Positions 9,426 through 60,769 of a stretch of DNA of 64,000 nucleotides are shown here, piece by piece (the first letter of the stretch is position 1; every line of letters begins with the position of its first letter). The stretch is from Patescibacteria group bacterium. Lineage in GTDB: Bacteria > Patescibacteriota > Patescibacteriia > Magasanikbacterales > GWA2-37-8. A program made the translations under genes and the position numbers. The DNA is taken from assembly GCA_004321885.1 (NCBI GenBank), contig SCQK01000013.1, positions 1 to 64,000 on the forward strand, given 5' to 3'. The notes under the pieces were generated by a model. The model did no database searches and had not been told where the DNA came from. It worked only from the letters and a program-made list of their open reading frames with translations.

Positions 9426-10151
9426 ATGCTTTACATTGTCGCGACACCCATCGGCAACCTAGGCGACATCACTTTGCGCGCCTTAGAGACACTCAAAAAT
9501 GTTGATTTTATCTTGTGCGAGGACACGCGCGTGACAAAAAATTTGCTGGCGCATTATAAAATAGAAAAGCCGCTTATCAGTTATCACCAGCACACCGACG
9601 CTCGCAAGACGAAAGAGATCATCGGCCTGCTGGAAAGCGGCAAGAATTTGGCGCTCGTAACCGATGCGGGCACGCCGAGTATTTCCGACCCGGGGGCACA
9701 CAGTTTCCTCCCACTTTTAGGGGGAGGACAGGCCACCACACCAAAGAATTTGGTGTGGTGGCAGGGGAGGGGGTATTCGGTCGTTCCCATTCCAGGTCCA
9801 TCCGCGGTTGTCGCCGCTCTTTCCATTTCCAGCCTCCCCACCGACAAATTTGTGTTCATGGGTTTCCCGCCGCACAAAAACAAGCGACAAAAGTTTTTCA
9901 AAGAAGTGGCCGAGGCCAAACACACAGTCGTGTTCTACGAATCCAGCCACCGCATAAAAAAATGCCTGGCCGAACTGGCGCAGGTCTTGTCGCCAAACAG
10001 ACAAGTGGTTATCTGCCGCGAGCTGACCAAAAAATTTGAGAGCGTTTACCGCGGCACAATTTCCGAAATCGCGTCTCAAACCATTCCCGATAAAGGAGAG
10101 TTTGTGATAGTTATATCCCCCCTTTATAAGGGGAGGACTAAGGATGGGTAA
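9426..10151 (+). CDS. rsmI: 16S rRNA (cytidine1402-2'-O)-methyltransferase RsmI (tetrapyrrole-methylase fold), carrying an in-frame repeat insertion
   Basis: 'MLYIVATPIGNLGDITLRALETLKNVDFILCEDTRVT'. A GC-rich composite palindrome at 9704-9775 is in frame, encoding 'LPLLGGGQATTPKNLVWWQGRGYSVV'. Confidence 0.8.
   Translation: MLYIVATPIGNLGDITLRALETLKNVDFILCEDTRVTKNLLAHYKIEKPLISYHQHTDARKTKEIIGLLESGKNLALVTDAGTPSISDPGAHSFLPLLGGGQATTPKNLVWWQGRGYSVVPIPGPSAVVAALSISSLPTDKFVFMGFPPHKNKRQKFFKEVAEAKHTVVFYESSHRIKKCLAELAQVLSPNRQVVICRELTKKFESVYRGTISEIASQTIPDKGEFVIVISPLYKGRTKDG
9704..9775. repeat. Composite GC-rich repeat: C/G hairpin + 31-nt perfect palindrome GCCACCACACCAAAGAATTTGGTGTGGTGGC + GGGGAGGGGGTA (inside rsmI)
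   Basis: Seen directly. A near-identical 31-nt palindrome (1 mismatch) recurs at 59667-59697. Confidence 0.7.
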
Positions 10152-10160
10152 GATACTGTC

Positions 10161-11702
10161 ATGTTAAACAAATTCTACATCACCACCACCATACCTTACG
10201 CCAACGCGGACCCGCACATCGGGTTTGCTTTGGAAATTTTATACGCCGATATCATGGCGCGCTATAGGCGTCTCTTGGGTGATGACGTATATTTTCTCAC
10301 CGGCACCGACGAGCACGGACAGAAGATGTTGAAAACCGCCAAAGAAGCCGGCCAACCGGTGGAAAAGTTTGCCGCGGAAAAATCCGCCAAGTTCCAAAGT
10401 TTGGCGGACCAGTGCAATATCAGCAACAACGATTTTATCCGTACAACCGAGGAGCGGCATATTAAACGCGCGAAAAAGTTTTGGGAACTGGCGCAGAAAA
10501 ACGGCGACATTTACAAAAAACAATATTCCGGTTTGTATTGCGTGGGCTGCGAGTCGTTCAAGACCGAAAAAGACTTGATGGATGGCAAGTGTTCGCTCCA
10601 CAATACAGCGCCCGAAATACTTACCGAAGAAAATTATTTTTTCCGTTTGTCACGTTTTCAGAAATCGCTGGAAAAATTATTCAAAAAAAATAAAAGTTTC
10701 GTTTATCCGGCCAGCCGCTACAATGAGATGCAAAATGTTTTGCGAAGCGGGCTGGAAGACATAAGCATTTCCCGCGAAAAGAAAAAATTACCATGGGGGA
10801 TAGAAGTGCCCGGCGACGCGGAACAAGTGATGTACGTGTGGTTTGACGCGCTCACCAATTACATCACCGCTTTGGGCTGGGGTTCGGCGGACGAAAGTTT
10901 GTTCAAAAAATACTGGCCGGCCGACGCGCACGTCGTCGGCAAAGACGTCAACCGTTTTCACTCTTTGCTCTGGCCGGCGATGCTGTTATCGGTGGGAATT
11001 GATTTGCCCAAGCAAATCGCGGTGCACGGATTTATTTACGTAGACGGACAAAAGATGAGTAAGTCGCTGGGCAACGTGGTCAACCCCGATGAACTTTCGG
11101 CAAAATATCCGCTGGACAGCGTCCGCTATTTTTTCGCGCGCGAAATACCTTTTGACAACGACGGCGATTTTACCAATGAAAAATTCGTTGAAAGATATAA
11201 CGCCGACCTGGCCAACGGCATCGGCAATCTTACCAGTCGCGTGTTGACAATGGTGGAAAAAACCGGCGGTGTCGTGCCAGCCGCCGAAAAGAAAAACGCC
11301 AAATGGCAGAGTCTGGTTACAAAAACCTGGAAAGAATACGCGGGATTTTTGGCCCAGTGGCGTTTTGACCGCGCCTTGGAAACCGTCTGGAAGTTTGTGT
11401 CTTTTTGCGACCAGACCATTTCCGAAAAACAGCCGTGGAAAATGGTCAAACAACTGTCATTCCCGCGAAAGCGGGAATCCATGTCGGAATTGGAAGATTT
11501 ACTTTTTTATCTCTGCGAATCATTGCGCCAAATCGCGGTAATGCTCTTGCCGTTTATGCCCGACACGACGGACAAAATTTTTGTCCGGTTGGGTCTGGAC
11601 GCCGGCAAAGAACTGGCCAAATCGTTTTCCGAATTGCGGACCTGGACCGATATTTCTGGCAACAAAATTAGCAAAGGCGAACCATTGTTCCCAAGAATTT
11701 AA
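10161..11702 (+). CDS. metG: Methionyl-tRNA synthetase (core only, no C-terminal tRNA-binding domain)
   Basis: HIGH-class motif 'PYANADPHIGF', KMSKS 'KMSKSLGN', Zn knuckle 'CVGCESF...C'. A short in-frame hairpin insert at 11455-11480 encodes 'LSFPRKRESMS'. Confidence 0.9.
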   Translation: MLNKFYITTTIPYANADPHIGFALEILYADIMARYRRLLGDDVYFLTGTDEHGQKMLKTAKEAGQPVEKFAAEKSAKFQSLADQCNISNNDFIRTTEERHIKRAKKFWELAQKNGDIYKKQYSGLYCVGCESFKTEKDLMDGKCSLHNTAPEILTEENYFFRLSRFQKSLEKLFKKNKSFVYPASRYNEMQNVLRSGLEDISISREKKKLPWGIEVPGDAEQVMYVWFDALTNYITALGWGSADESLFKKYWPADAHVVGKDVNRFHSLLWPAMLLSVGIDLPKQIAVHGFIYVDGQKMSKSLGNVVNPDELSAKYPLDSVRYFFAREIPFDNDGDFTNEKFVERYNADLANGIGNLTSRVLTMVEKTGGVVPAAEKKNAKWQSLVTKTWKEYAGFLAQWRFDRALETVWKFVSFCDQTISEKQPWKMVKQLSFPRKRESMSELEDLLFYLCESLRQIAVMLLPFMPDTTDKIFVRLGLDAGKELAKSFSELRTWTDISGNKISKGEPLFPRI

Positions 11703-11754
11703 TAATGTCATTGCGACCCCCGACGTCACGTCGGGGGGAAGCAATCCCACGCGT

Positions 11755-12279
11755 ATGTCTTTATTTGATATTTTCCTCCTCATCATCATCGCCGGGTTCG
11801 GACTCTATGGCATGTGGTTCGGACTGGTGCGCGCCGTGGGCCGCCTTATCAGTTTGGTGGTCGGTTTGTATTTGGCCGGCAAATACTACGAACCCATGGC
11901 CAACTGGCTGATGAATTTCACCGGCTGGAAACCCAATTTTTCCAAGGTGCTTGTTTTTATTATCGCCTTTATCATTATTTCCCGGCTGGTAGGGCTGGTA
12001 TTTTGGTTTTTGGAAAAGGTGTTCAGTATTTTTACGCGCCTGCCGGTGATAAAAAGTTTGGACCGGCTTTTGGGTTTGGTTTTTGGTTTGTTGGAAGGAG
12101 CGATAATTCTGGGCGTGATTTTTTATTTCATCGCCCGTTTTCCGGTGAGCAAATGGCTGATGGATCAGCTCGTCGCGTCCGCGGTGGCGCCCTACACTGT
12201 TAAAATCGCGTCGTTTTTATGGCCGCTTCTGCCCGAAGCCCTGCGCGTGCTCCAAAGCGCGGTAAAAGGAATTTTGTGA
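11755..12279 (+). CDS. cvpA: CvpA-family membrane protein (colicin V production protein-like)
   Basis: ATG at 11755 follows the repeat element at 11706-11748. Four TM helices. The upstream part of ORF 11581..12279 overlaps metG and the repeat. Confidence 0.6.
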   Translation: MSLFDIFLLIIIAGFGLYGMWFGLVRAVGRLISLVVGLYLAGKYYEPMANWLMNFTGWKPNFSKVLVFIIAFIIISRLVGLVFWFLEKVFSIFTRLPVIKSLDRLLGLVFGLLEGAIILGVIFYFIARFPVSKWLMDQLVASAVAPYTVKIASFLWPLLPEALRVLQSAVKGIL

Positions 12280-13127: not shown

Positions 13128-13163
13128 CCTTTTCAAGGTTTTTTAGTAGAATATTGTCGCACT

Positions 13164-13394
13164 ATGAGCGACCGCAAGTATTACATGTTTGGTTTGAAAA
13201 TCGCCGGCGACTTCGGGATAAGCATTGCCGCGCCCGTGGTGTTGTTCGCTTTGTTGGGGCAATATCTGGATGAGAAATACAACACGGGTCCATGGCTCTT
13301 AATTGTCGGTTTTGTTTTGGCCGCGGCCATCTCGGCGAAACTTATTTACAAAAAAGCGAAAAGGTACGGAGATGAGTATCAGAAAATGAAATGA
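13164..13394 (+). CDS. AtpZ/AtpI-like small membrane protein preceding the atp operon
   Basis: 76 aa, two TM helices, immediately upstream of atpB. Confidence 0.5.
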   Translation: MSDRKYYMFGLKIAGDFGISIAAPVVLFALLGQYLDEKYNTGPWLLIVGFVLAAAISAKLIYKKAKRYGDEYQKMK

Positions 13395-13437
13395 CCCCTC
13401 CCTAACCCTCCCCTTAGCAAGGGGAGGGGAAACACTT
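13395..13437. repeat. GC-rich C-tract/G-tract hairpin repeat carrying the SD, immediately before the atpB ATG (family copy)
   Basis: 'cccctccctaaccctccccttagcaaggggaggggaaacactt|ATG'. Same architecture at 1336-1376, 8660-8686, 10116-10148, 17207-17249, 21164-21204, 38877-38933. Confidence 0.7.
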
Positions 13438-14211: not shown

Positions 14212-14360
14212 AGTGTCATCCTGAACTTGTTTCAGGATCTCCAATCGCGAACGGAGATGCTGAAATAAATTCAGCATGACAATTAATAATTAATGCGGCG
14301 TTACGCGAGGTAAAATAATTCATTTCCTCCTCGACGTAAGTCGCAAGAAAGGTCCATAAT

Positions 14361-15211: not shown

Positions 15212-15598
15212 GTGAAAAGAACCAACAAACAATTTGCCGTGGCTTTGTACGAATTGACGCTGGAAGCGACAGCCAAAACATTGCCGGACATACTGCGCGC
15301 TTTCGCGGCCTTGCTGGCGCGTGAGCACAAATTGCGCCGCGCCGATGGCATTATCAAAGAGTTTGAAAAATATTCCAAAGCGAAATCCGGGGCGCGGGAA
15401 ATAGAGGTGGAAGCGGCCAGAGAATTGAGCGGAGCCGTGAAAAAAGAAATCAGCGCGCTTTTCGGAGGCAAGGCGGAGATAACCGAGAAAATAGATCCGT
15501 CACTGCTGGGCGGCGTGCGCGTCAAAATCGGAGACGAGATTTTCGACGCCAGTTTACGCAAACAATTACAAAGATTACAAACACAACTAACAATTTAA
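15212..15598 (+). CDS. atpH: F0F1 ATP synthase subunit delta (OSCP), short form
   Basis: C-terminal OSCP-like 'LLGGVRVKIGDEIFDASLRKQLQRL'. Operon position. Confidence 0.7.
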   Translation: MKRTNKQFAVALYELTLEATAKTLPDILRAFAALLAREHKLRRADGIIKEFEKYSKAKSGAREIEVEAARELSGAVKKEISALFGGKAEITEKIDPSLLGGVRVKIGDEIFDASLRKQLQRLQTQLTI

Positions 15599-15669
15599 TG
15601 TCATTGCGAGGAGCGAAGCGACGAAGCAATCCCATGAGATTGCTTCGACCCTGCGGGTCTCGCAATGAC
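15599..15669. repeat. Full-length copy of the 'TGTCATTGCGAGGAGCGAAGCGACGAAGCAATCC...CTCGCAATGACA' hairpin element (intergenic, atpH-atpA)
   Basis: Outer stem gtcattgcgag/ctcgcaatgac, inner stem gaagcaatc/gattgcttc. Shorter copies sit at 11706-11748, 11455-11480, 17904-17931, 21411-21447, 21679-21712, 21892-21974, 32910-32940, 55979-56027, 58629-58650 and 60107-60164. Confidence 0.7.
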
Positions 15670-15683
15670 AAACTAAAATTTAT

Positions 15684-17204: not shown

Positions 17205-17249
17205 TTTTCTCCCCCTTTATAAGGGGGAGACGAAGAGGGGGTAAACATT

Positions 17250-18209
17250 ATGGCGGTTAACACCAAAGCAATTAAGCGCCGCATCAAATCCGTGGGCAGT
17301 ACGCGCAAGATCACGAAAGCCATGGAGATGGTAGCCGCGGCCAAAATGCGCAAAGCTGTGAACGCGGCTTTGGACACCCGCGCCTATGCCAAACTGGCCT
17401 GGGACTTGCTTGTTGATTTGGCGAAATCGCAAAAGGCAAAGATCCCGTTGTTGGACGTGCGGCCCGTGAAAAAACTTTTAGTGGTGCTTATCACTTCCAA
17501 CCGCGGGTTGTGCGGCAGTTTCAACGCCAATATTATCCGCAAAACCGCCGAGCAATTGAAAAATCCGGCCAACATCAGCCGACAGCGGGTAAAAGGCAAA
17601 CAAGTTGAGCCCGAGCAAAGCATTGAAGTGGATATTATCGGCATCGGCAAAAAAGGCGCGGATTTCGCGCGCAAAACCGGCCATCATTTGGAGGCGTCAT
17701 TTTCCGAATTCAGCGACACGCCCGCCATGGCCGACGCCCTGCCCATCAGCCGGATGATTATCGGCGATTACGAAAACAAAAAGTACGATAAAGTGGTGGT
17801 GGCTTACACTGATTTCAAATCCACCATCGCGCAAATAGCCAAGTTGCGACAAGTACTGCCGATTTCCGAACAGGATTTGGAGAAGATGATGATTGACAGT
17901 GAAGTCATTGCGAGCGAAGCGAAGCAATCCCAAACACAAACGCTGGAACTCTCTGAATACTTATTTGAACCGAACAAACTTGATGTTTTGAAAATAATTT
18001 TACCGCGTCTGGTGGAAGTGCAGATTTTTCAAGCCATGCTGGAATCGGCGGCTAGCGAACACAGCAGTCGCATGCTCGCTATGAGAAACGCCAGCGACGC
18101 GGCCGAGGACATGATTAAAGAATTAAATTTGAATTTTAACAAAGCGCGGCAGGCGGCGATCACGCAGGAAATCGCGGAAATCGCTGGCGGCGCCGCGGCA
18201 TTGGATTAA
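17250..18209 (+). CDS. atpG: F0F1 ATP synthase subunit gamma, carrying an in-frame 'GTCATTGCGAGCGAAGCGAAGCAATCC' element
   Basis: N-terminal 'IKRRIKSVGSTRKITKAMEMVAAAKMRKA' and C-terminal 'ITQEIAEI'. The repeat at 17904-17931 encodes 'EVIASEAKQSQ'. Confidence 0.9.
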   Translation: MAVNTKAIKRRIKSVGSTRKITKAMEMVAAAKMRKAVNAALDTRAYAKLAWDLLVDLAKSQKAKIPLLDVRPVKKLLVVLITSNRGLCGSFNANIIRKTAEQLKNPANISRQRVKGKQVEPEQSIEVDIIGIGKKGADFARKTGHHLEASFSEFSDTPAMADALPISRMIIGDYENKKYDKVVVAYTDFKSTIAQIAKLRQVLPISEQDLEKMMIDSEVIASEAKQSQTQTLELSEYLFEPNKLDVLKIILPRLVEVQIFQAMLESAASEHSSRMLAMRNASDAAEDMIKELNLNFNKARQAAITQEIAEIAGGAAALD

Positions 18210-18212
18210 TTT

Positions 18213-20664
<2,452 letters not shown>

Positions 20665-21137: not shown

Positions 21138-21210
21138 TCTGGTATAGTAAGTAAAGCAAAGTTTTCCTCCCCTTGATAAGGGGAGGACTAAGGAGGGGTA
21201 ATAATGCGCT

Positions 21211-21344: not shown

Positions 21345-22037
21345 ATGAACGCGCGAAAGGTGTATAAGCACCTTTTCAAGAAATACGGACCACAAGGTTG
21401 GTGGCCACTTTGTCATTCCGACCGAGCGAAGCGAGTGGAGGAATCCCTTTTTGAAATAGCAGTCGGAGCGATACTTACCCAAAGCACCGCCTGGCGCAAT
21501 GTGGCCGTGGCGATTGCGAATCTGGACAAAGCCAAAGCCCTCACGCCCAAGGCGATAATAAAAATGCCGAAAGCACGACTCTGTAAGTTGATAAAGCCGG
21601 CCGGATATTTCAATCAAAAATGCAAGAAGTTGAAAATATTTGCCAAATGGCTGATGGAAAATTGCGGCGGCGACGTCCTGTCATTGCGAGGAGCGAAGCG
21701 ACGAAGCAATCCTTTGGAAATCAGGAATAAATTATTGTCTATCTGGGGCATCGGCAAAGAAACCGCTGATTCAATCATTCTTTACGCCCTGAACAAACCG
21801 ATTTTCGTGATTGACGCCTACACTCGCCGTCTCTGCGCAAAGTTTAGCATAAAATTCAAGGAATACGACGAGTATCGCGAGTTTTTTGAAATGTCATTGC
21901 GAGGAGCGCAGCGACGAAGCAACCCCAAACGTTTAAGCAGGGGATTGCTTCGGCCTGATGGCCTCGCAATGACATACCAAGAATACCACGCCCTTATCGT
22001 CGCCTCAGGCAAAGACAAACACAAGTACGTATTATGA
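21345..22037 (+). CDS. HhH-GPD superfamily DNA glycosylase (endonuclease III-like, no Fe-S cluster) carrying three in-frame repeat-element insertions
   Basis: 'YGPQGWWP', HhH 'IWGIGKETADSIILYAL', 'VIDAYTRRL'. Inserts at 21411-21447, 21679-21712 and 21892-21974 encode 'LCHSDRAKRVEES', 'SLRGAKRRSNP' and 'SLRGAQRRSNPKRLSRGLLRPDGLAMT'. Confidence 0.65.
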   Translation: MNARKVYKHLFKKYGPQGWWPLCHSDRAKRVEESLFEIAVGAILTQSTAWRNVAVAIANLDKAKALTPKAIIKMPKARLCKLIKPAGYFNQKCKKLKIFAKWLMENCGGDVLSLRGAKRRSNPLEIRNKLLSIWGIGKETADSIILYALNKPIFVIDAYTRRLCAKFSIKFKEYDEYREFFEMSLRGAQRRSNPKRLSRGLLRPDGLAMTYQEYHALIVASGKDKHKYVL

Positions 22038-24804: not shown

Positions 24805-27800
24805 ATGGCGGAGCTAAACAAATCGCAAAAATCGGCGGTGGAGTATGTTGGCGGACCGCTACTGATAGTGGCGGGCGCTGGCACGGGCAAAACCACTGTC
24901 ATCACCAAAAAAATCGCCCACCTGATAGAGCAAAACCTGGCCAAGCCCGAGGGAATTTTGGCGTTGGCTTTTAACGACAAAGCGGCCGATGAAATCCAGA
25001 CCCGCGTTGACGCCGAACTGGAGCTGGGCTACGTCGAAACGCATATTTCCACGTTCCACGCTTTTTGCCAAAAACTTTTGGAAACATACGGGCTGGATAT
25101 TGGCATCTCCAATCAGTTCAAAGTACTCACGCAAACAGACGCCTGGATTTTGGTGCGCAAAAATCTGGATAAGTTCAATCTTGATTATTATCGTCCGCTC
25201 GGCAATCCCACGCGCCATATTCACGAACTCATCAAACATTTTTCCAAATGCAAAGACGAACTGATTACTCCGAATGAATATCTGGAATACGCCGAGAACG
25301 TGGAATTAGACAAAGACAACAAAAACACTGGCGAGCGCACGCGTCTGACAGAGGTGGCCAACGCTTATCACGCCTATAATCAGCTGTTGCTGGACAACAA
25401 CGTCTTGGATTTTGGCGATTTGATTTTTTACGCGAACAAACTATTGGCCGAACGGCCGAAAATTTTAGATGGTTTGCGCAAGCAATTCAAATATATTTTG
25501 GTGGATGAGTTTCAGGACGTGAATTACGCGCAGTATGAGCTCGTGCAAATGCTCTCCCACCCCCCCTCCGTCCCCCCCTCAGGCAGGGGGGGAGGACATG
25601 GAGCCCAACTCACGGCGGTAGGGGATGATGACCAGAGTATCTACGCTTTTCGCGGGGCCTCGGTGTCCAATATCTTGCGCTTCAAAGATGATTATCCGAA
25701 GTGCAAAGAAATCGTGCTGACCGAAAACTATCGCTCGGGACAAAAGATATTGGACATCTGTTACAAATCAATTCAAAACAATAATCCTGACCGGTTGGAA
25801 GCGAAATTAAAAATTGATAAAAAGTTGAAAGTGGCTACCCCCCCTTCGCCCCCCCCTTATCAAGGGGGGGAAGTAATCCATATCCACTGCGCCACCTTGG
25901 AGCAGGAGGCGAGCGCGGTGGCCCAAGAAATATCACGGCTTAAAAAAAGCGAGTCCGAAGCGAACTGGGACGATTTCGCGATTTTGGTGCGCGCCAACAG
26001 CCACGCTGATATTTTTGTAAACGCGCTTGCCAATGCCGGCATTCCCTGTGAGTTTTGGGCCGCCAGCGGCTTGTATCATCAGCCCATCGTATTGGATTGC
26101 TTTAATTTTTTCAAACTCATCACCAATTATCACGAATCAACGGCAATTTACCGCCTCCTGCGCCTGCCGTTTGTAAACTTCAAGGAAAACGACTTACAAA
26201 AAATCACGTATAACGCCCACAAAAAAACCGTTTCGTATTACGAGGCGCTTAAACGCGGCGCCGAGTTTGGTTTATCAACCGAAGGCGCCGTAATCGCGGA
26301 TAAAATCATTTCTCTTATTCACGACGGCATGAAATCCGGCCGCTTTGAAAAACCACACCGCGTGCTTTACGACTTTTTGGACAAGAGTGGCTATCTGAAA
26401 TATCTGGCGCACGAAGAAAACGAGGGCAACGCCAATGTTATCCGACAAATCTACCAGCTGACCGACTTTTTTGAGTTTATAAAAAAGTACGAGCAGGCTA
26501 GCCCCGACGCCAACGTTTACGGCCTGATGGAACACATGGAATATCTGCTTGACTCTGGCGAAGAAGGCGCCATGCGCCAACAAAACGATACGCCCGATTC
26601 GGTGAACATTTTTACCGTGCACAAGGCCAAGGGTTTGGAGTTCAAGTATGTTTTTATGGTCAATCTGGTGGAAGACCGTTTTCCCTCGCGCAAAAAATCC
26701 GAGCCTATTGAAATCCCTCTGCCGCTGGTGAAAGAAAAACTGCCCGAGGGAGACAGCCATCTGCAGGAAGAGCGCCGCTTGTTTTACGTGGCGGCTACGC
26801 GCGCCAAAGAGCGCTTGTATTTTACCAGCGCCGACGACTACGGCGGAGCGCGCAAGAAAAAAATCAGCCGCTTTTTGGATGAGTTGGGGTATAAAGCTGG
26901 CTCCATAGTCCCGCAGGGCTATGGAGCCAAGATGCAGTATGTCTCCATAGGATTGCCTGCGGCAACCACTATGGAGCCAGCGAAGGGTGAGTTTGTTTAC
27001 GCCCCGCCCAAGATTTTTTCCTTTTCGCAAATCAAATCGTACAATAATTGTCCGTATCAGTACAAACTCGCCAGCATTATTCACTTACCGCAAAAGCAAA
27101 GTCACTATTTCAGTTTTGGCAACAGCATGCATAACACCTTACTGGAGTTTTACAAGCGGGTACAGGCGTTAAATAACAGCCGGCAGGAAAGTTTGTTCGG
27201 AATTACAAATGGCTCCGCAGGCCGCGCGGCGGGCACTATCCGCCTACGCGGCACTATGGAGCCAACCGTGAACAGTGTAAACAACGAAGTAAAAGCCCCG
27301 CCCTTGGATGAACTTCTGGGAATTTATCAAAAAAATTGGATTGACGAGTGGTATTTGAGCAAAAAACAAAAAGATGAATACTTTAGCGAAGGCAAAAAAA
27401 TGCTGGCCGCTTTTTACGAATCCAATAAGGACAGGTGGACGGTGCCCGTGGCGCTGGAAGGCGCGTTCAAAATCAAAATAGGGGAGTACTTTTTGGCCGG
27501 ACGCATGGACAGGGTGGATAAACTGCCAGACGGTTCGTTGGAAATTATTGATTACAAAACCGGCGAAAGTAAAGAAACGGCCGCGGGCGAAGAAAAAGAG
27601 CAGTTGATGATTTACCAGATGGCGGCCGAGCAGTTGTCACGCTACAAAGAAATTGGCCGCGCCGGCAAACTCACCCTGTATTATTTACGCGATAATTTGC
27701 CGGTGTCTTTTATCGGCGAGGAAAAAGAACTGGAAAAAATAAAAACAAAACTGCTTGGGGTGATGGAAAAAATAATTGCCGGCGACTTTCGCGCCACGCC

Positions 27801-38874: not shown

Positions 38875-38933
38875 TACCCCTCCTATCCTCCACCTTAATT
38901 AAGGGGGGGTAAGGTAGGGGGGTAAATATTATT

Positions 38934-41088: not shown

Positions 41089-42042
41089 ATGTCTATAAAT
41101 GCACTTCCCTACCTGGATGATTTTATTTTGAACTTGAAAGCAAATAATTTTTCGGAAGAAACCGCGTATAATTACGAACGCGACCTCAATACTTTTGAGA
41201 TTTTTTTGAGTGAAGACCTAAAAAAAACATTTAACAAAGTAGATAAAACTGACCTGCTGAGATTTAAGGCCTATTTGATGTCTTCTGACCGTAAAACGGC
41301 TAAAACCGTCAAAACAAGCAAAAAATTAAGCAGTTATTCTATAAATCGCATACTATCTTCGTTGAGGTCGTATCTGAAATTTTTAGAAGATATGGACCAC
41401 AACCCTCCCGTCTCCCCTGCCGCGGTAAAATTAATCAAGAACATAAAAAAACACGCGCAGGTGCCGGAATTTGAAGAAATCATAAAAGTGATTGAGGCGC
41501 CGATGAAATACGAAGAAGACGAACGAATAGCTCTACGAAATCGGGCGATATTAGAGACACTGTTCGCTACAGGCATGCGTATTTCGGAACTTTTGTCGTT
41601 AAAAGTCGTTCAAATTGACCAAACCGGACGCATCTATATACTGGGAAAAGGCAAAAAACAACGTTTTGTCTACCTGACACCCAGAGCGCTCGCGCACCTA
41701 AAAAATTACCTGGCGAAACGAAACAGTACTTCTGAAATGCTATTTGTCCCCTACCGCGGCAGAAATAACAAAGAAAAAAATAAAAAAATATCGCCTAATT
41801 ATCTTCAATTTAAGATTAAGCGATACAGAGAGTTGCTTGATATCAATATTCCCATCAGCGCGCACACCTTGCGACACGGGTTTGCCACCTATCTGGCTGA
41901 AAACGGGGCAAACCCGGCCGCCATCCAGATATTGCTTGGCCACGAGTCGCTGGATACGACCACTCGCTATGTTCACGCTTCAGACAAATTCGCGGAGAAA
42001 ACTCACCACGATTTTCACCCTCTCTTTAAGGACAAAAACTAA
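41089..42042 (+). CDS. Tyrosine site-specific recombinase (XerC/XerD-like)
   Basis: 'ETLFATGMRISELLSL', catalytic 'HTLRHGFATYL' and 'LLGHESLDTTTRYVH' (R..HxxR..Y). Confidence 0.85.
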   Translation: MSINALPYLDDFILNLKANNFSEETAYNYERDLNTFEIFLSEDLKKTFNKVDKTDLLRFKAYLMSSDRKTAKTVKTSKKLSSYSINRILSSLRSYLKFLEDMDHNPPVSPAAVKLIKNIKKHAQVPEFEEIIKVIEAPMKYEEDERIALRNRAILETLFATGMRISELLSLKVVQIDQTGRIYILGKGKKQRFVYLTPRALAHLKNYLAKRNSTSEMLFVPYRGRNNKEKNKKISPNYLQFKIKRYRELLDINIPISAHTLRHGFATYLAENGANPAAIQILLGHESLDTTTRYVHASDKFAEKTHHDFHPLFKDKN

Positions 42043-49850: not shown

Positions 49851-49888
49851 CCCCCCCTCCTTTCGGAGGAGGGGGCGAGGGGGTGGTG
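49851..49888. repeat. GC-rich palindromic repeat-family copy after the clpB stop (likely bidirectional terminator between clpB and typA)
   Basis: 'ccccccctcctttcggaggagggggcgagggggtggtg'. Confidence 0.5.
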
Positions 49889-52912: not shown

Positions 52913-55141
52913 ATGCTCAAAAAAATCGCTTGCCTTTTTTTGATTACGACCTGGATCCCAGTTTTCGCTGGAATGACAGTGTCCTTTTCCCCTGCCCTCG
53001 CCCAAACGGAATTTAATCCGCATTTTATTATCTCCGACGAAGAAATGCAGACCCTGGCGAACTGGACCCGCGACGACGTGCAAAAATTTCTGGACGGCAA
53101 GGGCAGTTATCTGCGCGCCTTTTCCACCGAAGATGTGTCCGGCGCCGTCAAACCAGCGGCCGATATTATCTACGACGCGGCGCGCGCCTACACCATCAAT
53201 CCAAAATATCTGCTCGTTACTTTACAAAAAGAGCAGTCGCTGATTACCGACGACGCGCCCAGCCAAAAACAGCTTGATTGGGCCACGGGCTACGCGGTCT
53301 GCGATTCCTGCGACCGCGGCGACCCGGCCGTGGCCAAACACAAGGGCTTTGGCAAGCAGGTAGACGACGCGGCCGGCATCATCCGCTGGTATTACGACAA
53401 TCGCGACCGCGGCATTGTCAAAAAAAAAGACCAGGCCGTCAGCATAGACAACCAATCGGTCATCCCGCAAAGCTGGGCCACGGCTTTTTTGTACACCTAT
53501 ACCCCGCACTTGCACGGCAATAAAAATTTTTGGAAAATCTGGCAGACCTGGTTTGCGCAAAACTACCCCAACGGCACCCTGCTGGTCGGCGAAACCACGG
53601 GCGACACCTATCTGATTCAAAACAACACTAAACGCAAATTCAAAAATAAATCCACCCTGCTGTCGCGCGCCGACCCGGAAATGATAATCACCGTGCCCGA
53701 AAGCGAACTCTCCAACTACGCCACTGGTCCGGAAATTTCTTTCCCAAATTTTTCGCTCTTGCGCTCTCCGGCGAGCGCCTATTACCTGCTTGACTACGAC
53801 ACCATCCGCCCGTTTGCCGGCGAAGAAGTCATCCGCTATCACGGCTACAATCCGCAAGAAATCATAGACGTTTCCGAAGCGGACCTGACCGGCCTGACTC
53901 TCGGTACCACCATTTACGCCACGTCCACTCCGGTGCAGGGCGTGGTCTATCAAATCACAGATCTAAAAAACGCCCTTTACATGCTCAAAGACGGCACGCT
54001 CTATCCGATTATAGATAAAAAAATGGTGGAGGCGAATTACAAAAATTTGAAACTGGAAAAAAAGAAGCTAACGGACATAAAAAATTATCCGGTCGCCAAC
54101 CAGCCTTTGCAGTTCAAAGACGGCACCCTTATCAGAATAAAAGACAGCGAAACGATTTACGTGATAGAAAACGGCAAAAAGCGCCGCCTGGCCGATGAAG
54201 ACACTTTCCTGGCCATGGGCTATAAATACGCCAACGTCATATCGGTGGAATTGCTGACTGCTTTGAATATCTTTGACGGCGAGCCGATATTCATCAACGG
54301 CAGTCTGCTTTCGGCCAAAGATAAATTTCTGGGCGACAACCAACAGGCTGTCATTGACAATTACGGCGCCAAGCTCCCCTCATATCTGGTGGCCGAGTAT
54401 CCCAGCGGCCGCATCTTATCCGGCAAAAATATAGACGCCAGGCGCCCCATTGCCTCGCTCACCAAAGCCATGGTCGCTTACGAAGCCATATACGAAAATT
54501 TAGCGCCCGCGAAAATCACGGCCTACAGCGCCAAGAAATACCGCTCCGAAGGCTATGCCCTAAAAGTGCGTGACGGAGCCAAATTCAAAAATGCCGACCT
54601 GCTGAGCGCCGCGCTCATCGGCTCTTACAACAATATTGCCAAAGCCGTCGTGGGCGCCACGGGCCTGGACGAAGACGCGTTTTTGGCCGCGCTCAATCGC
54701 CGTCTTAGCGACTGGGGGGCGGATAACACGAAAATCGCCGACCTCACCGGCTTGGATGAAAAAAACTTTTCCACGGCCCGCGACCTGCTTCGCGTTTACA
54801 CGAAAGTTTTGAAAAACGAAACCATCGCCAAGTCCCTGGGCACTAAAAAATTTATCCTGCGCAATGTCTCGGGCAAATCGTACGGTTCGCTCAAATACAC
54901 AGTGCAAAATCGCAATAAATTATTTTTCCAAAACAATAAAAATTATAAAATTATCGCCAGCAAAACCGGTTATACGGACGAGGCCGGCGCCGTGCTTTTT
55001 ATGGTAATAGAATCCAAAAAAACCAAAAAGAAATACACCATCATCACTCTCGGCGACAAAAATTATAATTATCGGTTCAAAGAGCCGGACAAAATCGCCA
55101 GCTGGATTTCTTCCGACAACGCGAATTTAGCCAGCAATTAA
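52913..55141 (+). CDS. Secreted protein with C-terminal D-alanyl-D-alanine carboxypeptidase (PBP5/S11-like) domain and large N-terminal domain of unknown function
   Basis: Signal peptide. Motifs 'SLTK' (SxxK), 'SYNN' (SxN), 'KTGYT' (KTG) in the last ~270 aa. Confidence 0.7.
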   Translation: MLKKIACLFLITTWIPVFAGMTVSFSPALAQTEFNPHFIISDEEMQTLANWTRDDVQKFLDGKGSYLRAFSTEDVSGAVKPAADIIYDAARAYTINPKYLLVTLQKEQSLITDDAPSQKQLDWATGYAVCDSCDRGDPAVAKHKGFGKQVDDAAGIIRWYYDNRDRGIVKKKDQAVSIDNQSVIPQSWATAFLYTYTPHLHGNKNFWKIWQTWFAQNYPNGTLLVGETTGDTYLIQNNTKRKFKNKSTLLSRADPEMIITVPESELSNYATGPEISFPNFSLLRSPASAYYLLDYDTIRPFAGEEVIRYHGYNPQEIIDVSEADLTGLTLGTTIYATSTPVQGVVYQITDLKNALYMLKDGTLYPIIDKKMVEANYKNLKLEKKKLTDIKNYPVANQPLQFKDGTLIRIKDSETIYVIENGKKRRLADEDTFLAMGYKYANVISVELLTALNIFDGEPIFINGSLLSAKDKFLGDNQQAVIDNYGAKLPSYLVAEYPSGRILSGKNIDARRPIASLTKAMVAYEAIYENLAPAKITAYSAKKYRSEGYALKVRDGAKFKNADLLSAALIGSYNNIAKAVVGATGLDEDAFLAALNRRLSDWGADNTKIADLTGLDEKNFSTARDLLRVYTKVLKNETIAKSLGTKKFILRNVSGKSYGSLKYTVQNRNKLFFQNNKNYKIIASKTGYTDEAGAVLFMVIESKKTKKKYTIITLGDKNYNYRFKEPDKIASWISSDNANLASN

Positions 55142-55969: not shown

Positions 55970-56032
55970 TTCGTTCGCTGTCATTCTAGCCCCTGCCTAC
56001 CGGCAGGCAGGCGCGAGCAGGAATCCCACACT

Positions 56033-57922
56033 ATGCTTCTGCAAATTATCCCCGCACGGAGAATGCCTTTTTCTCTTCCGTTTTTGGATTACGCGGCTCC
56101 CGCTGAACTGGAAGCGCGCGTCAAAATCGGCCAGCTGGTGAAAATTCCGTTTCGCTCGCGCGAAGAATTTGGCATTATTAAATCAATCGGCGGCGATGCG
56201 CCGCCAAAAAAAGTCAGGCCCATTTTGGAAATTTTTTATGATACGCCTCTTCTGTCGCAGGCGCAATTAAATTTTTTAGAAGAGATATCGGCTTTTTACG
56301 GCACGCCCTTGTCTTTTCTGTTAAAAACCAATCTGCCGCCGCTCTCGGAAAAAAAATTAAAAAAAGAACTGGACAAAAAAAACTTCAGGTCCGGCGCGGC
56401 GGTCAGTAAAAAACCTAAAAAGCCAGGGGTGTTTTATTACGCCGACAAAGGAGAAAAACAAAAACTATTTATTGACGCGCCGGCTAAACGAGGACAAACT
56501 TTAATTATAGCGCCCGAATTGGAGCAAATTACCGAAATATGGAATCTTTTGTCCGAAGAGCGGCGCGCCAAGTGCGCGGCCATTTCAGGCCGACTAAGCG
56601 AAAAACAATTTTTCGCCGTCTGGATGGATATTTTTTTTGGACGCAAAAACATCGTCATCGGCACGCGCCGGGCACTGTTTTTGCCCTGGCGAAACTTGAC
56701 GCGCGTAATCATTGACGACGAAGCCAATGAAAGCCATAAAAGCTGGGACATGGCCCCGCGCTTTCACGCCAAAGACGCGGCCCTGTTTCTGGCCGCCAAG
56801 CACGGCGCGGCTCTCCAAATTATGTGCCACACGCCCTCGGTGGAAACGTATTTTTTCGCGCAAAAGAACGTTTACAAAACAAAAGACGCGCCCAAAACGT
56901 TCGCTGACTCTGCTACCATCGTGGATATGTGCGGGGAACGTAGGGCCGGCAATTACACGTTTATCAGCCAATACTTGCGCGACAAAATCACGGCTCTAAA
57001 CGGAGACGCCTTTATTTTTCTCAACCGCAAAGGCGCCGCCGCGGCCGTGGGTTGCCGCGATTGCGGCAATGTCATAAAATGTCCGTCTTGCGGCCGCTCG
57101 CTGGTGTATCACGAAACCGATAAATCATTGCGTTGCCATTTTTGTAAAACCCTGAGCCGCATGCCCCCGTCTTGCGCGGTTTGCCGTGGCGTAAATATGG
57201 CCTTATACGGCATTGGCACCCAGCTCGCCGAAAACACCCTGCGCAAGCTCGCCCCTGACAAGCGAGTTATCCGCATTGATTCGGACGACGGCGAGCTTAG
57301 CGAGTTAAAAGCGCCGGGAAATAAAATTATCATCGGCACGCAACTGGCCTGGAATAAAATTGACTGGTCAGCGCTCAAACTGGCCGCTTTTTTGGACGCT
57401 GACTCGTCTCTTTTTATTCCCGAATTTAAGATAGATGAAAATGTTTGGTATCTACTGCGAGACGCGCAGTTTCGTTTGGGCTGTCATTCCGGCCTTGTGC
57501 CGGAATCCACAATCAATCCGGAATTAATCATTCAAACAGGCCATCCGGAATATCCTGTTTTTTCCGGGCTGGCCAAGCCGGCCAATTTTTATGAACAGCA
57601 GATAAAAATCAGACAGCTCTTGGGCTTTCCGCCTTTTAATTTTTTGCTTAAAATATACAACAGCGAGCCGGGCGAAGCGCTGGCCAAAAGCCAGGCCGAG
57701 GCTTTTTTGGCCGAACTGCGCGCCTTGACAAGAGGCATGCCGCGGGTTAATATAACCGGCCCGCTGGCGGCGCCGTTTCGCCGCGGCAAAGATTACTCGC
57801 AAATAATTTTGCTAAAAATCGGGTTTGCCAACTACAAGCGCGACACGGCCAAAATTTCGTCTTTGGCGGCAACGCGCGGCTGGAAAGTAGACCCAAATCC
57901 AAATACCTTATTAGCCCTATGA
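56033..57922 (+). CDS. priA: PriA-like primosomal protein N' with degenerate helicase motifs
   Basis: N-terminal 3'-DNA-binding domain 'LDYAAPAELEARVKIGQLVKIPF'. Four-CxxC zinc module 'CPSCGRS...CHFCKT...CAVCRG'. Where Walker A would sit it reads 'DAPAKRGQT' (no GK[TS]) and motif II reads 'IIDDEANESH' (not DExH). Confidence 0.75.
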   Translation: MLLQIIPARRMPFSLPFLDYAAPAELEARVKIGQLVKIPFRSREEFGIIKSIGGDAPPKKVRPILEIFYDTPLLSQAQLNFLEEISAFYGTPLSFLLKTNLPPLSEKKLKKELDKKNFRSGAAVSKKPKKPGVFYYADKGEKQKLFIDAPAKRGQTLIIAPELEQITEIWNLLSEERRAKCAAISGRLSEKQFFAVWMDIFFGRKNIVIGTRRALFLPWRNLTRVIIDDEANESHKSWDMAPRFHAKDAALFLAAKHGAALQIMCHTPSVETYFFAQKNVYKTKDAPKTFADSATIVDMCGERRAGNYTFISQYLRDKITALNGDAFIFLNRKGAAAAVGCRDCGNVIKCPSCGRSLVYHETDKSLRCHFCKTLSRMPPSCAVCRGVNMALYGIGTQLAENTLRKLAPDKRVIRIDSDDGELSELKAPGNKIIIGTQLAWNKIDWSALKLAAFLDADSSLFIPEFKIDENVWYLLRDAQFRLGCHSGLVPESTINPELIIQTGHPEYPVFSGLAKPANFYEQQIKIRQLLGFPPFNFLLKIYNSEPGEALAKSQAEAFLAELRALTRGMPRVNITGPLAAPFRRGKDYSQIILLKIGFANYKRDTAKISSLAATRGWKVDPNPNTLLAL

Positions 57923-58413
57923 TTCTACCCATCTTAACCGAACCAAATCCCCTTTTGCACAAACAGGCAAAGCCGATTGCGGATGCGCGCATAATCTCTG
58001 CCGAGATGAAAAAACTCGCCACCGACCTTATTGAAACCATGCGCGCCAAAGACGGAGTGGGATTGGCCGCCACCCAAGCGGGACGCCTGGAACAAATTTG
58101 CGTAGTGGCGGTTGATTTAGAAAAACAGGAAAAACGCGAAATCGTTTTAATTAATCCGCGCTGGGAAAAAATCGGCCTAAGGAAAGAAACTGACGATGAA
58201 GGCTGTTTGTCCGTGCCTGAAATTTTCGGCAAAGTGAAGCGCTATAAAAAAATCCGCGTGTTCGCGAAAAATTTGCTCGGCAATAATTTGGAATTTGTCG
58301 CCGAGGACCTGCTCGCGCGAATCATCCAGCACGAGGTGGATCATTTGAACGGAATTTTATTCACAGAGAAAGCCAAGGGTTTGCATAAAATTGACAAAAG
58401 CGCCGGTAAATAG
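57919..58413 (+). CDS. def: Peptide deformylase
   Basis: 'GVGLAATQAG', 'EGCLSVP', 'HEVDHLNG'. Confidence 0.9.
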   Translation: MILPILTEPNPLLHKQAKPIADARIISAEMKKLATDLIETMRAKDGVGLAATQAGRLEQICVVAVDLEKQEKREIVLINPRWEKIGLRKETDDEGCLSVPEIFGKVKRYKKIRVFAKNLLGNNLEFVAEDLLARIIQHEVDHLNGILFTEKAKGLHKIDKSAGK

Positions 58414-58425
58414 CGCGACGAATTT

Positions 58426-59352
58426 ATGACTATTAGCACAATATTTTTTGGAACACATAATTTTGCGGCGAAAATTTTGGCAGAGCTTATCAAAAACGGC
58501 TCTTTTGACATTACACTGGCAGTCACCCAGCCGGACAGACCGGCGGGAAGAAAACAAGACCTGGAAATTCCGGCCGTGAAACTTTTAGCCGAAAAAAACA
58601 ATATTCCGGTCGCCCAACCGGCCGGTTTGTCATTGCGAGGAGTAATCCCTTTTCCTGATTTCTATGACCTGAACATCCTCTGCCAATACGGAAACATAAT
58701 CACCAAAGAAATTTTAGACAAATCAAAATACGGTTCAATCAATGTCCACCCTTCGCTATTGCCAAGATACCGCGGGGCCTCACCCATCCAATCCGCGCTC
58801 GTAAATGGCGAAACCGAAACCGGCGTTTCCATAATTTTGATGGATGAGGAGCTTGACCATGGCCCGATTTTGGCGCAAAAAAAAATGAACATTGGCGATG
58901 ATGATAATTTTGTTTCTTTGAGCGCGAAATTGTCGTATCTATCCGCCCCTCTTTTGGTAAATACGGCCCTTGATTTTGTAAACGGAAAAATTACTCCCGG
59001 GCCACAAAACCACGACCAAGCGACTTTTTGCAAACAACTCTCGCGCGAGGATGGTAAAATTGATTTTAATAAATCCGCCAAAGAAATTTACAATCAGTGG
59101 CGCGGCCTCGCGCCGTGGCCCGGGGTTTGGGCAAGCTGGGAAAACAAACGTCTCAAATTTATTAATATCAGCCCCCTTCCCCTTTATAAGGGGGATGTGG
59201 GGAGGGGGTATGTAAGGGGGCACAAACTCATCATCGCCTGCGCCCAAGGCGCTATTGAAATTTTAGAACTCCAACTTGAAGGAAAAAAGCCCATGGTCGC
59301 GGCCGCGTTTATAAACGGCTATGGCAAAATAAACGGCGCTATTTTACGCTAA
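58426..59352 (+). CDS. fmt: Methionyl-tRNA formyltransferase, with two in-frame repeat insertions
   Basis: 'IFFGTHNFA', 'NVHPSLLPRYRGASPIQ'. Inserts: 58629-58650 ('SLRGVIP') and 59171-59220 ('SPLPLYKGDVGRGYVRGH'). Confidence 0.85.
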   Translation: MTISTIFFGTHNFAAKILAELIKNGSFDITLAVTQPDRPAGRKQDLEIPAVKLLAEKNNIPVAQPAGLSLRGVIPFPDFYDLNILCQYGNIITKEILDKSKYGSINVHPSLLPRYRGASPIQSALVNGETETGVSIILMDEELDHGPILAQKKMNIGDDDNFVSLSAKLSYLSAPLLVNTALDFVNGKITPGPQNHDQATFCKQLSREDGKIDFNKSAKEIYNQWRGLAPWPGVWASWENKRLKFINISPLPLYKGDVGRGYVRGHKLIIACAQGAIEILELQLEGKKPMVAAAFINGYGKINGAILR

Positions 59353-59353
59353 T

Positions 59354-60769
59354 ATGCAGTCCAAAAAACTTTTTCTTGTTTTTTTAGGGCTCTACGCGCT
59401 CCTGCGCGTCTTTTCCTATTTCTTCAGCCCTGAAACCCCGCTTTACTCGGCCAATCCGGTTAATACTTTGGCCGCCGCGCTGGTTCTTTTCACGGCGATT
59501 TATTTTCTGCTCAAAAAAGACCAGCGCGGCTGGCTGATTGTGGCCGGTGAGCTAATTCTCGGCGGCGGTGGAAATTACCTGGCTGTCGGGCCATTATCCC
59601 TACGGACGTCGCTTCTTTTTGCTTCACTGCTAATTTACTTCGCTCAACTTAAAAGGGGAGGGGCAGGCCACCACACCAAAGATTTTGGTGTGGTGGCAGG
59701 GGGTGGGGTTTGGGCAATATTTTTACTGATTGTAGTCGCCATCATCGCGGCCGGCCGCGGCCTATATCTGGGCCACGCTACTCGCCAAATTTTTTCCGAC
59801 ACGCTTCCCTATTTTTTCCTGCTTTATTATTTTCCGCTTCGCGATTTAATTAAATCTGACAATTTCAAGTCCGTCTGTAAGCAAATGCTCTTCGCGGCTA
59901 TTGTTGGCAACGCGCTTTTTATGCTTCTTACCTATGCCGGCTTTTCCAGCGGCCTGTTCGCTTTGCAGGATGAGTATTACCATTGGTTCCGCGATGTGGC
60001 TCTGGGTAAAATTACCGACATCGGCTTTAATTCCTTTCGCATAATTTTAGACGAACATTTATTGCTCGTGCCGCTGCTGCTGGCGTTTCTTTCGTCTGTC
60101 ATTGCGACCCCCTCATCAAGTGTGGGGCTAAAGGCTGCCACGCTCGCAATGACATTCGTCCTCTCTATTAATATTACCCGCATTTACATTCTGGCGTTCG
60201 TTGTCGGTCTGCTGTTCTTATTTTCAAAAACAAACTGGAGGCGCTGGCTGGCAATTTCATCGGCTTCGCTGGTTTTATTTTTTATCTTTTTCACCTCGCT
60301 TCATCTTATTTCCAGCCGCGGCCAAAATTTGGGCTGGGAATATTTTGGCCTGCGCCTGCAAAGCGTAATGGCGCCGCAAATAGAAGAAAGTTCACTTTCG
60401 CGCGTATTGCTTTTGCCCAAAATTTGGGAAAAAATAAAAGCCCATCCCCTCTTGGGTAATGGACTGGGCGACACGGTCACTGTTTACAGCCCGGCGCTCA
60501 AACAAACCATTACCACTCCGCACTTTGATTGGGGCTATCTGGAAATCTGGGCGGAAGTGGGCTTACTCGGTTTGTTTATCTGGATATTATTGCTCACAAA
60601 AATAATTCCCTCCCCTATCAGGGGAGGGACAGAGGGTGGAGTAACGGTCGCGCCACTCGCCTCCCTTCTTGTCATCAATCTCACCTCACCTGCTATTTTC
60701 CACGCTTTCGGCGTTATCTTTCTTACTTTTTACTTCACTCATTATGGCTCAAATCAAAATTCTGATTGA
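59354..60769 (+). CDS. Polytopic membrane protein, O-antigen ligase/Wzy-like, with three in-frame repeat insertions
   Basis: About 12 TM helices. Inserts at 59654-59714, 60107-60164 and 60606-60640. Family assignment is weak. Confidence 0.45.
   Translation: MQSKKLFLVFLGLYALLRVFSYFFSPETPLYSANPVNTLAAALVLFTAIYFLLKKDQRGWLIVAGELILGGGGNYLAVGPLSLRTSLLFASLLIYFAQLKRGGAGHHTKDFGVVAGGGVWAIFLLIVVAIIAAGRGLYLGHATRQIFSDTLPYFFLLYYFPLRDLIKSDNFKSVCKQMLFAAIVGNALFMLLTYAGFSSGLFALQDEYYHWFRDVALGKITDIGFNSFRIILDEHLLLVPLLLAFLSSVIATPSSSVGLKAATLAMTFVLSINITRIYILAFVVGLLFLFSKTNWRRWLAISSASLVLFFIFFTSLHLISSRGQNLGWEYFGLRLQSVMAPQIEESSLSRVLLLPKIWEKIKAHPLLGNGLGDTVTVYSPALKQTITTPHFDWGYLEIWAEVGLLGLFIWILLLTKIIPSPIRGGTEGGVTVAPLASLLVINLTSPAIFHAFGVIFLTFYFTHYGSNQNSD

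Follow-up and report, generated by a model that had tools for sequence, protein, structure and literature searches.

Yeast mitochondrial GC clusters are very short, GC-rich palindromes that merge and nest, have no linked enzyme and include copies lying in frame within the var1 gene (PMC8811140). They end in short direct repeats (AG, TAG), which are taken to be target-site duplications (PMC8811140). The present study concerns a bacterial sequence that resembles them: a 31-nt hairpin found twice, once in rsmI and once in an O-antigen-ligase-like gene, in a 64,000-nt stretch of DNA from a Patescibacteria group bacterium (contig SCQK01000013.1 of assembly GCA_004321885.1, positions 1 to 64,000 of the forward strand; this whole stretch is called the window below). 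Taken as a whole, the evidence makes it very probable that the two 31-mers represent a mobile element, palindromic and non-coding, of 29 bp. The element is real, ultra-small and similar in kind to transposable elements of the miniature inverted-repeat type (MITEs).

Among the described systems the GC clusters appear most like it and offer the closest working analogy, with some differences: they are mitochondrial, have other sequences, carry 2-3-bp repeats and are in some cases skipped in translation, whereas the hairpin element is bacterial, is flanked by a 4-bp duplication, has a fixed length of 29 nt and is free of stop codons in all six frames. Rickettsia palindromic elements (RPEs) are alike in being palindromes that sit in frame in many unrelated housekeeping genes and are translated at tolerated sites (PMC10969869, PMC3184786). 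They are ~100-150 bp long, are found only in Rickettsia, show no clear duplication and usually use one frame per family; the hairpin element has 29 bp, crosses phyla, carries the 4-bp duplication and is read in three frames. With its 29-nt unit, and with no match to Rfam or to any other family, it falls outside the RPE sequence families in size.

Described bacterial MITEs are ~50-500 bp long and contain internal sequence. The hairpin element shares with them inverted-repeat ends, a duplication of fixed length with a target preference, a lack of coding capacity and dispersed copies, but it consists of only two 13-bp repeats and 3 bp, several-fold less than the sizes of described MITEs. The IS1380 insertion sequences (IS) have 'CC' ends and 4-5-bp repeats. 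piggyBac transposons carry CCC at the tips of their terminal inverted repeats and make a 4-bp duplication of the TTAA type, with TAAA and TCAA as variants (PMC10813416), and IS1380 is regarded as their prokaryotic counterpart (PMC5718144). The hairpin family is similar to both in its CCCCC/GGGGG tips (CCACC in the window) and in its T/A-rich 4-bp duplications.

HUH/Y1 systems leave no target-site duplication. Palindromes derived from IS200/IS605 insert 3' of a fixed tetra- or pentanucleotide, again without duplication, whereas the flanks of the hairpin are duplicated and variable (TTTA, TAAA, CAAG, CGAG, CCTG, CAGG). The small dispersed repeats (SDR) of cyanobacteria, which Elhai et al. in 2008 are said to have described, are reportedly mobile-looking, 21-27 nt long and often nested, with an unsolved mechanism; they differ from the hairpin element in sequence and in host. 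Repetitive extragenic palindromic (REP) sequences and their paired forms (REPINs) are, like the hairpin element, dispersed hairpin repeats of 20-40 nt (PMC3116915, PMC3733652). They are unlike it in having a GTAG/CGTC head, extragenic positions, restriction to single species and no duplication, and they go with a gene for a REP-associated tyrosine transposase (RAYT).

Two copies of one hairpin in unrelated genes

The features on which the argument rests are as follows.

9426-10151, forward strand: rsmI, the 16S rRNA C1402 2'-O-methyltransferase gene, host of copy 1 (homology, structure match, alignment)
9729-9732, unstranded: left target-site duplication of copy 1, CAGG (alignment to the D1 repeat described below; 4-bp flank rule from 116 copies)
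9733-9761, unstranded: copy 1 of the 29-nt palindromic element, CCACCACACCAAA-GAA-TTTGGTGTGGTGG (search, covariance model, D1 alignment)
9762-9765, unstranded: right target-site duplication of copy 1, CAGG (D1 alignment; 4-bp flank rule)
59354-60769, forward strand: gene for a Wzy_C / O-antigen-ligase-like membrane protein, host of copy 2 (Pfam Wzy_C, homologs)
59664-59667, unstranded: left target-site duplication of copy 2, CAGG (D1 alignment; 4-bp flank rule)
59668-59696, unstranded: copy 2 of the 29-nt element, CCACCACACCAAA-GAT-TTTGGTGTGGTGG (search, covariance model, D1 alignment, stop-codon count)
59697-59700, unstranded: right target-site duplication of copy 2, CAGG (D1 alignment; 4-bp flank rule)

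The 31-nt sequence GCCACCACACCAAAGAATTTGGTGTGGTGGC lies at 9732-9762 in rsmI, and a version with a GAT loop lies at 59667-59697 in the ligase-like gene. The two match at 30 of 31 positions and the single difference (GAA vs GAT) falls within the loop; dinucleotide shuffles predict 0 matches to the 31-mer. An earlier note on this DNA had reported both 31-mers, their positions and their one-base difference, all of which is borne out by locating them directly. It had also called the sequence a perfect palindrome, and this needs correcting: the 31-mer is a 14-bp inverted repeat, the stem, whose two halves are separated by a 3-nt loop, GAA or GAT, that is not symmetric. The element proper measures 29 nt, two perfect 13-bp arms plus 3 nt, which in the window takes the form CCACC.../...GGTGG. 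It folds into a very stable hairpin (~-26 kcal/mol as RNA, -16.4 kcal/mol as DNA; z ~-7). Similarity between the window copies reaches 56 nt at 89% identity (9719-9774 vs 59654-59709), and a covariance model trained on family members, applied with filters off to the 64 kb, finds these two copies, both inside genes, and no others. Each is bounded on both sides by CAGG, a 4-bp target-site duplication that is rare as such (0.3% background; one of the 58 perfect duplications elsewhere).

Both host open reading frames (ORFs) are intact. The product of 9426-10151 matches solved RsmI structures (E=5e-50) and that of 59354-60769 matches Pfam Wzy_C, in keeping with the gene identities given before. The hairpin plus one duplication accounts for residues 102-112 of RsmI, read as QATTPKNLVWW (context ...GGGQATTPKNLVWWQGRG...), and is read in a different frame in the ligase-like gene as AGHHTKDFGVV (context ...GAGHHTKDFGVVAGGG...); in terms of the family frames set out below, the first is of the TPTP type and the second of the PHTK type. 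The translations thus agree with the earlier claim of differing peptides and frames. In an AlphaFold2 model of RsmI (shallow alignment, mean predicted local distance difference test (pLDDT) score 71), pLDDT is <50 over residues 99-113, which would fit a disordered excursion and is weak evidence for one.

The RsmI loop that runs from the DPG motif to the VVPIPG strand (window 9693-9785) is an insertion hotspot across Patescibacteria: many of their RsmI homologs have 20-60 extra residues there, from differing repeat families. Given that these other Patescibacteria carry quite different repeat-derived inserts, the loop can be described as a permissive hotspot. As for the ligase-like gene, an independent short-read assembly of the same organism (Logan contig SRR8426592_263676), which corresponds to window ~60200-63900, breaks inside it, apparently near the TGTCATTGCGACCCC repeat at 60090-60115. 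This break suggests that the repeats of the window fragment short-read assemblies.

A family dispersed across phyla

The two copies belong to a large family. A genome scan with the exact pattern CCACACCAAA-N(1-7)-TTTGGTGTGG, taking one genome per species, gave at least 112 loci, where by estimate no more than a handful would be expected by chance (counts below on 116 or 117 genome copies refer to copies among the matches listed). The family consensus is CCCCCACACCAAA-NNN-TTTGGTGTGGGGG and the dominant form among the matches listed is ACCCCCACACCAAA-NNN-TTTGGTGTGGGGGT. The window subfamily differs by a compensated C-to-A / G-to-T change that turns one C-G pair into A-T (CCACC/GGTGG), and this CCACC subfamily has 16 further metagenome loci with flanks unlike those in the window. 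The arms covary in their outer positions, and do so at stem positions that the search pattern left free (column 4/28: CG 36, AU 11, GC 2). Genome and metagenome loci together give more than 130 related copies in independent assemblies. Copies can be dense, with up to 4 within 8 kb: a Parcubacteria locus (L013:390-4362) has four copies in one 8-kb stretch, two of them in the same P-type ATPase gene, where a decayed copy reads PPHQKFGGGG and an intact one reads YPHTKDFGVGVY.

About half of the 80 loci listed are from Patescibacteria (Parcubacteria groups, Microgenomates, Saccharibacteria), the others being from Deltaproteobacteria/Thermodesulfobacteriota, Planctomycetota, Omnitrophota, Ratteibacteria, a Nitrospira metagenome-assembled genome (MAG), Saganbacteria and Methylomirabilota. 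Some of the hosts outside Patescibacteria are clearly genuine, for example an Omnitrophota putA gene of 67% GC, and many MAG names indicate a groundwater or subsurface origin. The core was matched 0 times in IMG/VR viral contigs, so there is no sign of carriage by phages; blastn with the consensus found no match among PLSDB plasmids. Rfam recognised no family in the window at the gathering threshold, nor at E<=1 in the locus with four copies. Searching the literature by sequence string returned unrelated primers only, a search for MITEs or palindromic elements in Patescibacteria returned nothing, and no published description of the hairpin family was found in the literature searched.

The earlier note had allowed that only these two copies might exist, through local gene conversion, or that the sequence might be an assembly chimera; the number and independence of the related copies dispose of both. 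An artefact of sequencing or assembly, for instance a chimeric palindrome, deserves a word of its own, since amplification chimeras can yield perfect palindromes and many copies are near contig ends. The latter is expected of any repeat, and the same 29 nt recurs in MAGs from many studies and assemblers, the intragenic copies always lie in an intact reading frame, and the duplication is exact. An artefact is therefore hardly conceivable.

Insertion with a 4-bp target-site duplication

Evidence that the family inserts comes from its flanks and from one pair of alleles. In the flank test, the 4 bases to the left of the C-run were compared with the 4 bases to the right of the G-run. Fully 50 of 116 copies have identical 4-nt flanks and a further 21 match at 3 of 4 positions, while the same test offset by 1-3 nt either way gives 0-2 identities. 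The perfect duplications are TTTA (20), TAAA (13), TTAA, TATA, TCAA and TTCA (2 each), with TTGA, TCTA, CAAG, CGAG and CCTG also represented. Because the duplicated tetranucleotides vary, they are target-site duplications and lie outside the element proper. The complements TTTA and TAAA make up 33 of the 50 perfect duplications (66%, against a background of 1.7%), a strong target preference. Within the CCACC subfamily, the 4-bp flanks are perfect in 8 of the 16 metagenome copies, and in one of these 8 they read CAGG.

Insertion is seen directly in a folD gene from a Giovannonibacteria genome. Its product has 284 aa including NPHTKLFGVGV; its closest relatives have 273 aa and lack exactly these 11. 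The homologs without the insert are 80-90% identical, and one shows no difference from the filled allele over the C-terminal two thirds. The filled DNA reads GCAAA-TAAA-CCCCCACACCAAACTTTTTGGTGTGGGGG-TAAA-TACCC and two independent empty alleles read GCAGA-TAAA-TACCC, so that the 33-nt insert equals the 29-nt element plus one TAAA. This filled/empty pair is a direct demonstration that the family inserts with a 4-bp duplication.

Such a duplication bears on a reading raised by the earlier note, which had pointed to a REP-associated transposase as a possible partner. The hairpin would then be a REP/REPIN-type palindrome moved as single-stranded DNA by a RAYT. A size of ~30 nt and a hairpin shape fit REPs (PMC3733652, PMC3116915), and the DNA hairpin is stable. 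Yet the ends are C-runs and G-runs and have no GTAG or CGTC head, the 4-bp duplication is present in both the flank test and the folD pair, and copies are intragenic (both in the window, and 33 of 117, or ~28%, deep inside long ORFs). The same sequence also occurs across phyla, whereas REPs are lineage-specific, and neither a Y1 transposase among the ~60 window genes nor a RAYT gene in the 64-kb window was found. The REP reading is very unlikely, and the partner that had been suggested for it lacks support.

Four other candidates were set aside. A CRISPR repeat (clustered regularly interspaced short palindromic repeat) would be regularly spaced, and these copies are not. The R'/R'' boxes of an integron attC site are absent. 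A terminator would not be expected inside genes, where copies do lie, and the T-run beside the element is the target-site duplication. An IS circle junction does not fit because, as seen in the folD insertion, the tips point outward.

Frame neutrality and survival inside genes

A second line of evidence concerns how the element fares in coding sequence. A stop codon cannot be encoded by either arm, T being missing from arm 1 and A from arm 2; copy 1 is stop-free in all six frames, as are 75 of the 77 elements with a 3-nt loop. The element plus its duplication is 33 nt, or 11 codons. Long ORFs (450 nt or longer) hold ~47% of the copies and 80% of random positions, so that copies are rarer there than positions drawn at random. 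Within genes the 33-nt form is over-represented: it makes up 26 of the 33 intragenic copies and 41 of the 84 elsewhere (Fisher p=0.0036). In other genomes, 37 intragenic copies between them use each of the three frames (PHTKxFGVGV, PPHQxFWCGG, TPTPxxLVWG), and the further host genes include MurC, RecJ, UvrD, PolX, HypF, a P-type ATPase (two copies in one gene), FolD and LigA. When LigA with the element is aligned with E. coli LigA, a 10-residue gap falls exactly at the encoded peptide. To judge from the intact ORFs, the element is presumably translated in frame in its host proteins. These observations uphold two earlier proposals, that this is an element at the level of DNA and not a protein motif (three frames in use) and that it is selected only to remain compatible with ORFs (stop-free arms, a 33-nt length and enrichment of that form inside genes).

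The same observations bear on whether the hairpin has been selected for a function, as a terminator, an RNA regulator or a protein-binding site, or whether it encodes a conserved peptide motif. In favour of a function, stability is very high for the length, the arms covary, and many copies are intergenic and adjoin promoter-like TTGACA boxes. But the element occupies all three frames of unrelated essential genes, varies in presence among close orthologs, has no Rfam counterpart even at E<=1 and has so far been found at scattered positions, and its TTTA-type flanks are accounted for by the duplication. We regard a selected function of this sort as very improbable.

Translation raises another question. 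The gene 60 of phage T4 is translated by a bypass in which the ribosome takes off at one codon and lands on another of the same kind, and a ribosome might likewise leave at the first duplicated codon of the hairpin insertion and land on the second, so that the hairpin is skipped. Identical codons do flank the element (CAG...CAG in rsmI), and the hairpin of ~-26 kcal/mol begins directly after the first of them. Bypass is found in yeast mitochondrial GC clusters, and the byps of Magnusiomyces mitochondria are likewise bypassed in translation (PMC8811140). Stop-free elements and intragenic enrichment of the frame-preserving length are, however, what read-through predicts and would be needless under bypass, and the take-off codon is not followed by a stop codon. 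Because the frame-preserving, stop-free form is enriched, plain read-through is favoured, and bypass seems very improbable.

Nesting in the G-rich D1 repeat

Both hairpins are nested in a second repeat. When the hairpin (29 nt plus one CAGG) is removed, each site aligns with a G-rich repeat family of the window, D1, which has the form CCTCCCC-loop-GGGGAGG-spacer-GGGGGTA; the hairpin sits in the spacer. The earlier observation that two repeat families combine into composite elements is thereby confirmed, and the earlier interpretation was essentially right: a frame-neutral mobile palindrome nested in a second repeat. The two hosting repeats are these.

9707-9775, forward strand: D1-type G-rich repeat hosting copy 1, its own sequence being CCTCCC-ACTTTTA-GGGGGAGGA (9707-9728) and GGAGGGGGTA (9766-9775) (hairpin-less alignment to D1 copies at 21166, 10116, 17209 and others)
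59641-59710, forward strand: decayed D1-type repeat hosting copy 2, its own sequence being CGCTCAACTTAAAAGGGGAGGGG (59641-59663) and GGGTGGGGTT (59701-59710) (hairpin-less alignment to D1)

The first block is translated LPLLGGG[QATTPKNLVWW]QGRGY and fills the DPG...VVPIPG loop of RsmI. The second is translated LKRGG[AGHHTKDFGVV]AGGGV and stands in place of the KIKDKRYEILKENRII-type loop of homologs. Without the 11 hairpin residues the RsmI loop has 17 residues (14-15 in uninterrupted homologs), and without its hairpin residues the ligase-like loop has 10 (11-19 in homologs). It follows that D1 for the most part took the place of native loop sequence, whereas the hairpin is a clean addition.

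Nesting complicates the account of how the window copies arose. The rare CAGG duplication is common to both copies and lies at the same position in a short CAGG variant of the D1 spacer, which implies that the D1+hairpin composite was probably copied as a unit. The hairpin is also carried in larger repeats elsewhere: at six Falkowbacteria loci it forms the apex of a longer multi-copy palindrome, and at five loci of a Nitrospira MAG it lies, at contig ends, in a multi-copy repeat that measures 100 nt or more. As in the window, the family seems inclined in general to nest inside other repeats. It could therefore be that what spread in the window was the composite, or D1 alone, or that one copy was converted to the other, the hairpin itself not moving here. 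Against this, identity is ~80% in the D1 flanks of the two copies but 30 of 31 positions in their hairpins, and in other places the CCACC subfamily has flanks of no relation to these and duplications of its own. The arguments leave this alternative at about even chances. It concerns the last step only and is compatible with a mobile hairpin element.

Further D1 copies lie at 1338-1372, 8666-8698, 10116-10151, 17209-17243, 21166-21200, 38880-38925, 25836-25872, 49851-49885 and 59176-59210. They consist of a C-rich arm, a TTTATAA-like loop, a G-rich arm, an ACTAAGG spacer and GGGGTAA. Several stop a few bases short of a start codon (8699, 10161, 17250, 38934) and present a GGAGG box like a Shine-Dalgarno sequence; in longer copies an upstream TACCCC... 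arm is able to pair with this box. Other copies lie inside ORFs. D1 looks like a mobile terminator/ribosome-binding-site cassette.

How the element might move

The explanation that accounts best for these findings is that of a mobile element whose ends are 13-bp terminal inverted repeats set 3 bp apart and which on insertion copies 4 target bases, here CAGG. The family is distributed over Patescibacteria and several further phyla, most of them from groundwater. When the element enters a tolerant surface loop it lengthens the protein by 11 residues and, because the addition is 33 nt and the arms are stop-free, leaves the gene intact; such copies then persist in essential genes, read in whichever frame they landed. 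Mobilisation would occur in trans, through an enzyme whose staggered cuts in the target lie 4 bp apart. Judged by the CCC...GGG termini and the T/A-rich 4-bp duplication, the likeliest candidate may be a DDE transposase of the IS1380/piggyBac kind, although the resemblance of ends is a lead only and no proof of the enzyme. Given that a 29-bp duplex cannot fold both tips into one complex, the substrate is probably an extruded cruciform or a single-stranded hairpin and not linear duplex.

Several observations weigh against this explanation. First, a 29-bp duplex is too short and stiff to join both ends in an ordinary synaptic complex. Second, no candidate enzyme came to light: Pfam annotation of the ~60 window genes revealed no transposase, of the Y1 or any other type, and neither a parent insertion sequence nor an autonomous element with these ends was found in the 64-kb window or in the 950 kb flanking the loci listed, where the lone arms are decayed hairpins and none is the end of a longer element. 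Nor did all-against-all clustering of 1566 ORFs from the 112 loci listed reveal a recurrent neighbour protein family. The widest cluster covers 12 of the 112 loci and is housekeeping, the widest clusters being histidine kinases, ABC transporters, RpoD, RF1, S1, ThrRS, GatA, DnaG and UvrD. Third, ~40% of copies have no recognisable duplication (they may be old or may have inserted otherwise), the window has only 2 copies in 64 kb, and no empty-site allele was found for its two insertions, the nearest homologs being only 70% and 57% identical. Finally, the difference between the D1 flanks and the far more similar hairpins makes two independent insertions into one D1 subfamily possible.

The window genes are housekeeping by Pfam, together with one recombinase. 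This is a XerC/D-type tyrosine recombinase at 41089-42042 (Phage_integrase plus a SAM-like N-terminal domain), the only recombinase in the window, with no link to the hairpin.

A more far-reaching proposal can be entertained tentatively, though it is rather unlikely. The 29 bp, two 13-bp ends plus a 3-nt loop, would be a "nano-transposon", smaller than any other piece of DNA known to make a target-site duplication on insertion, moving as a hairpin or cruciform, shaped to be neutral in translation (33 nt, six-frame stop-free), spread between phyla in groundwater and capable of seamless, piggyBac-like excision. If this were true, an insertion in an essential gene would lengthen a loop by 11 residues in a reversible way. 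In a bolder variant still, ribosomes may hop over the element by way of the duplicated codons.

Other repeats and features of the window

Palindromic repeats of two more families, TGTCATTGCGAGGAGCGAAGCGACGAAGCAATC and ACTGTCATTCCCGCGAAAGCGGGAATCC, occur at 15597-15670, 21677-21714, 21890-21927, 11696-11722 and 60090-60115, and at 11453-11490 and 52943-52980. Translated forms of such repeats (VIASxAKQS...PRNDN, VIPAKAGI, HSRVGGNPG) are found as inserts in the RsmI of other Patescibacteria. An AT-rich palindrome at 7664-7776, with 56-nt arms that are 71% complementary and repeated TTCCAATGTC-like units, is placed in the spacer between a cysteine desulfurase gene and a NifU-like gene. A Fic/DOC-domain gene (18213-19289) lies between the genes for ATP synthase gamma (17250-18209) and beta (19297-20664) and interrupts an otherwise canonical atp operon; GC is 0.43 over 18001-20000 and ~0.50 in the adjacent 2-kb windows.

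Implications

The main points of interest in the hairpin element are its size, its built-in coding neutrality, its spread across phyla and its mode of movement. With ends only 3 bp apart in 29 bp, it challenges the usual picture of a transposase pairing two ends, and this unusual pairing makes it a tractable substrate for biochemistry. It also explains the odd 11-residue inserts of the three frame types in Patescibacteria proteins, which, left unexplained, would mislead annotation, alignment and structure prediction. Whether close strains have a copy or lack it provides a ready marker for strain tracking, and the cross-phylum spread a marker of horizontal exchange in groundwater communities. 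The family offers a countable example of selfish DNA that survives in essential bacterial genes by being frame-neutral and stop-free, a form of survival previously known in bacteria mainly from Rickettsia.

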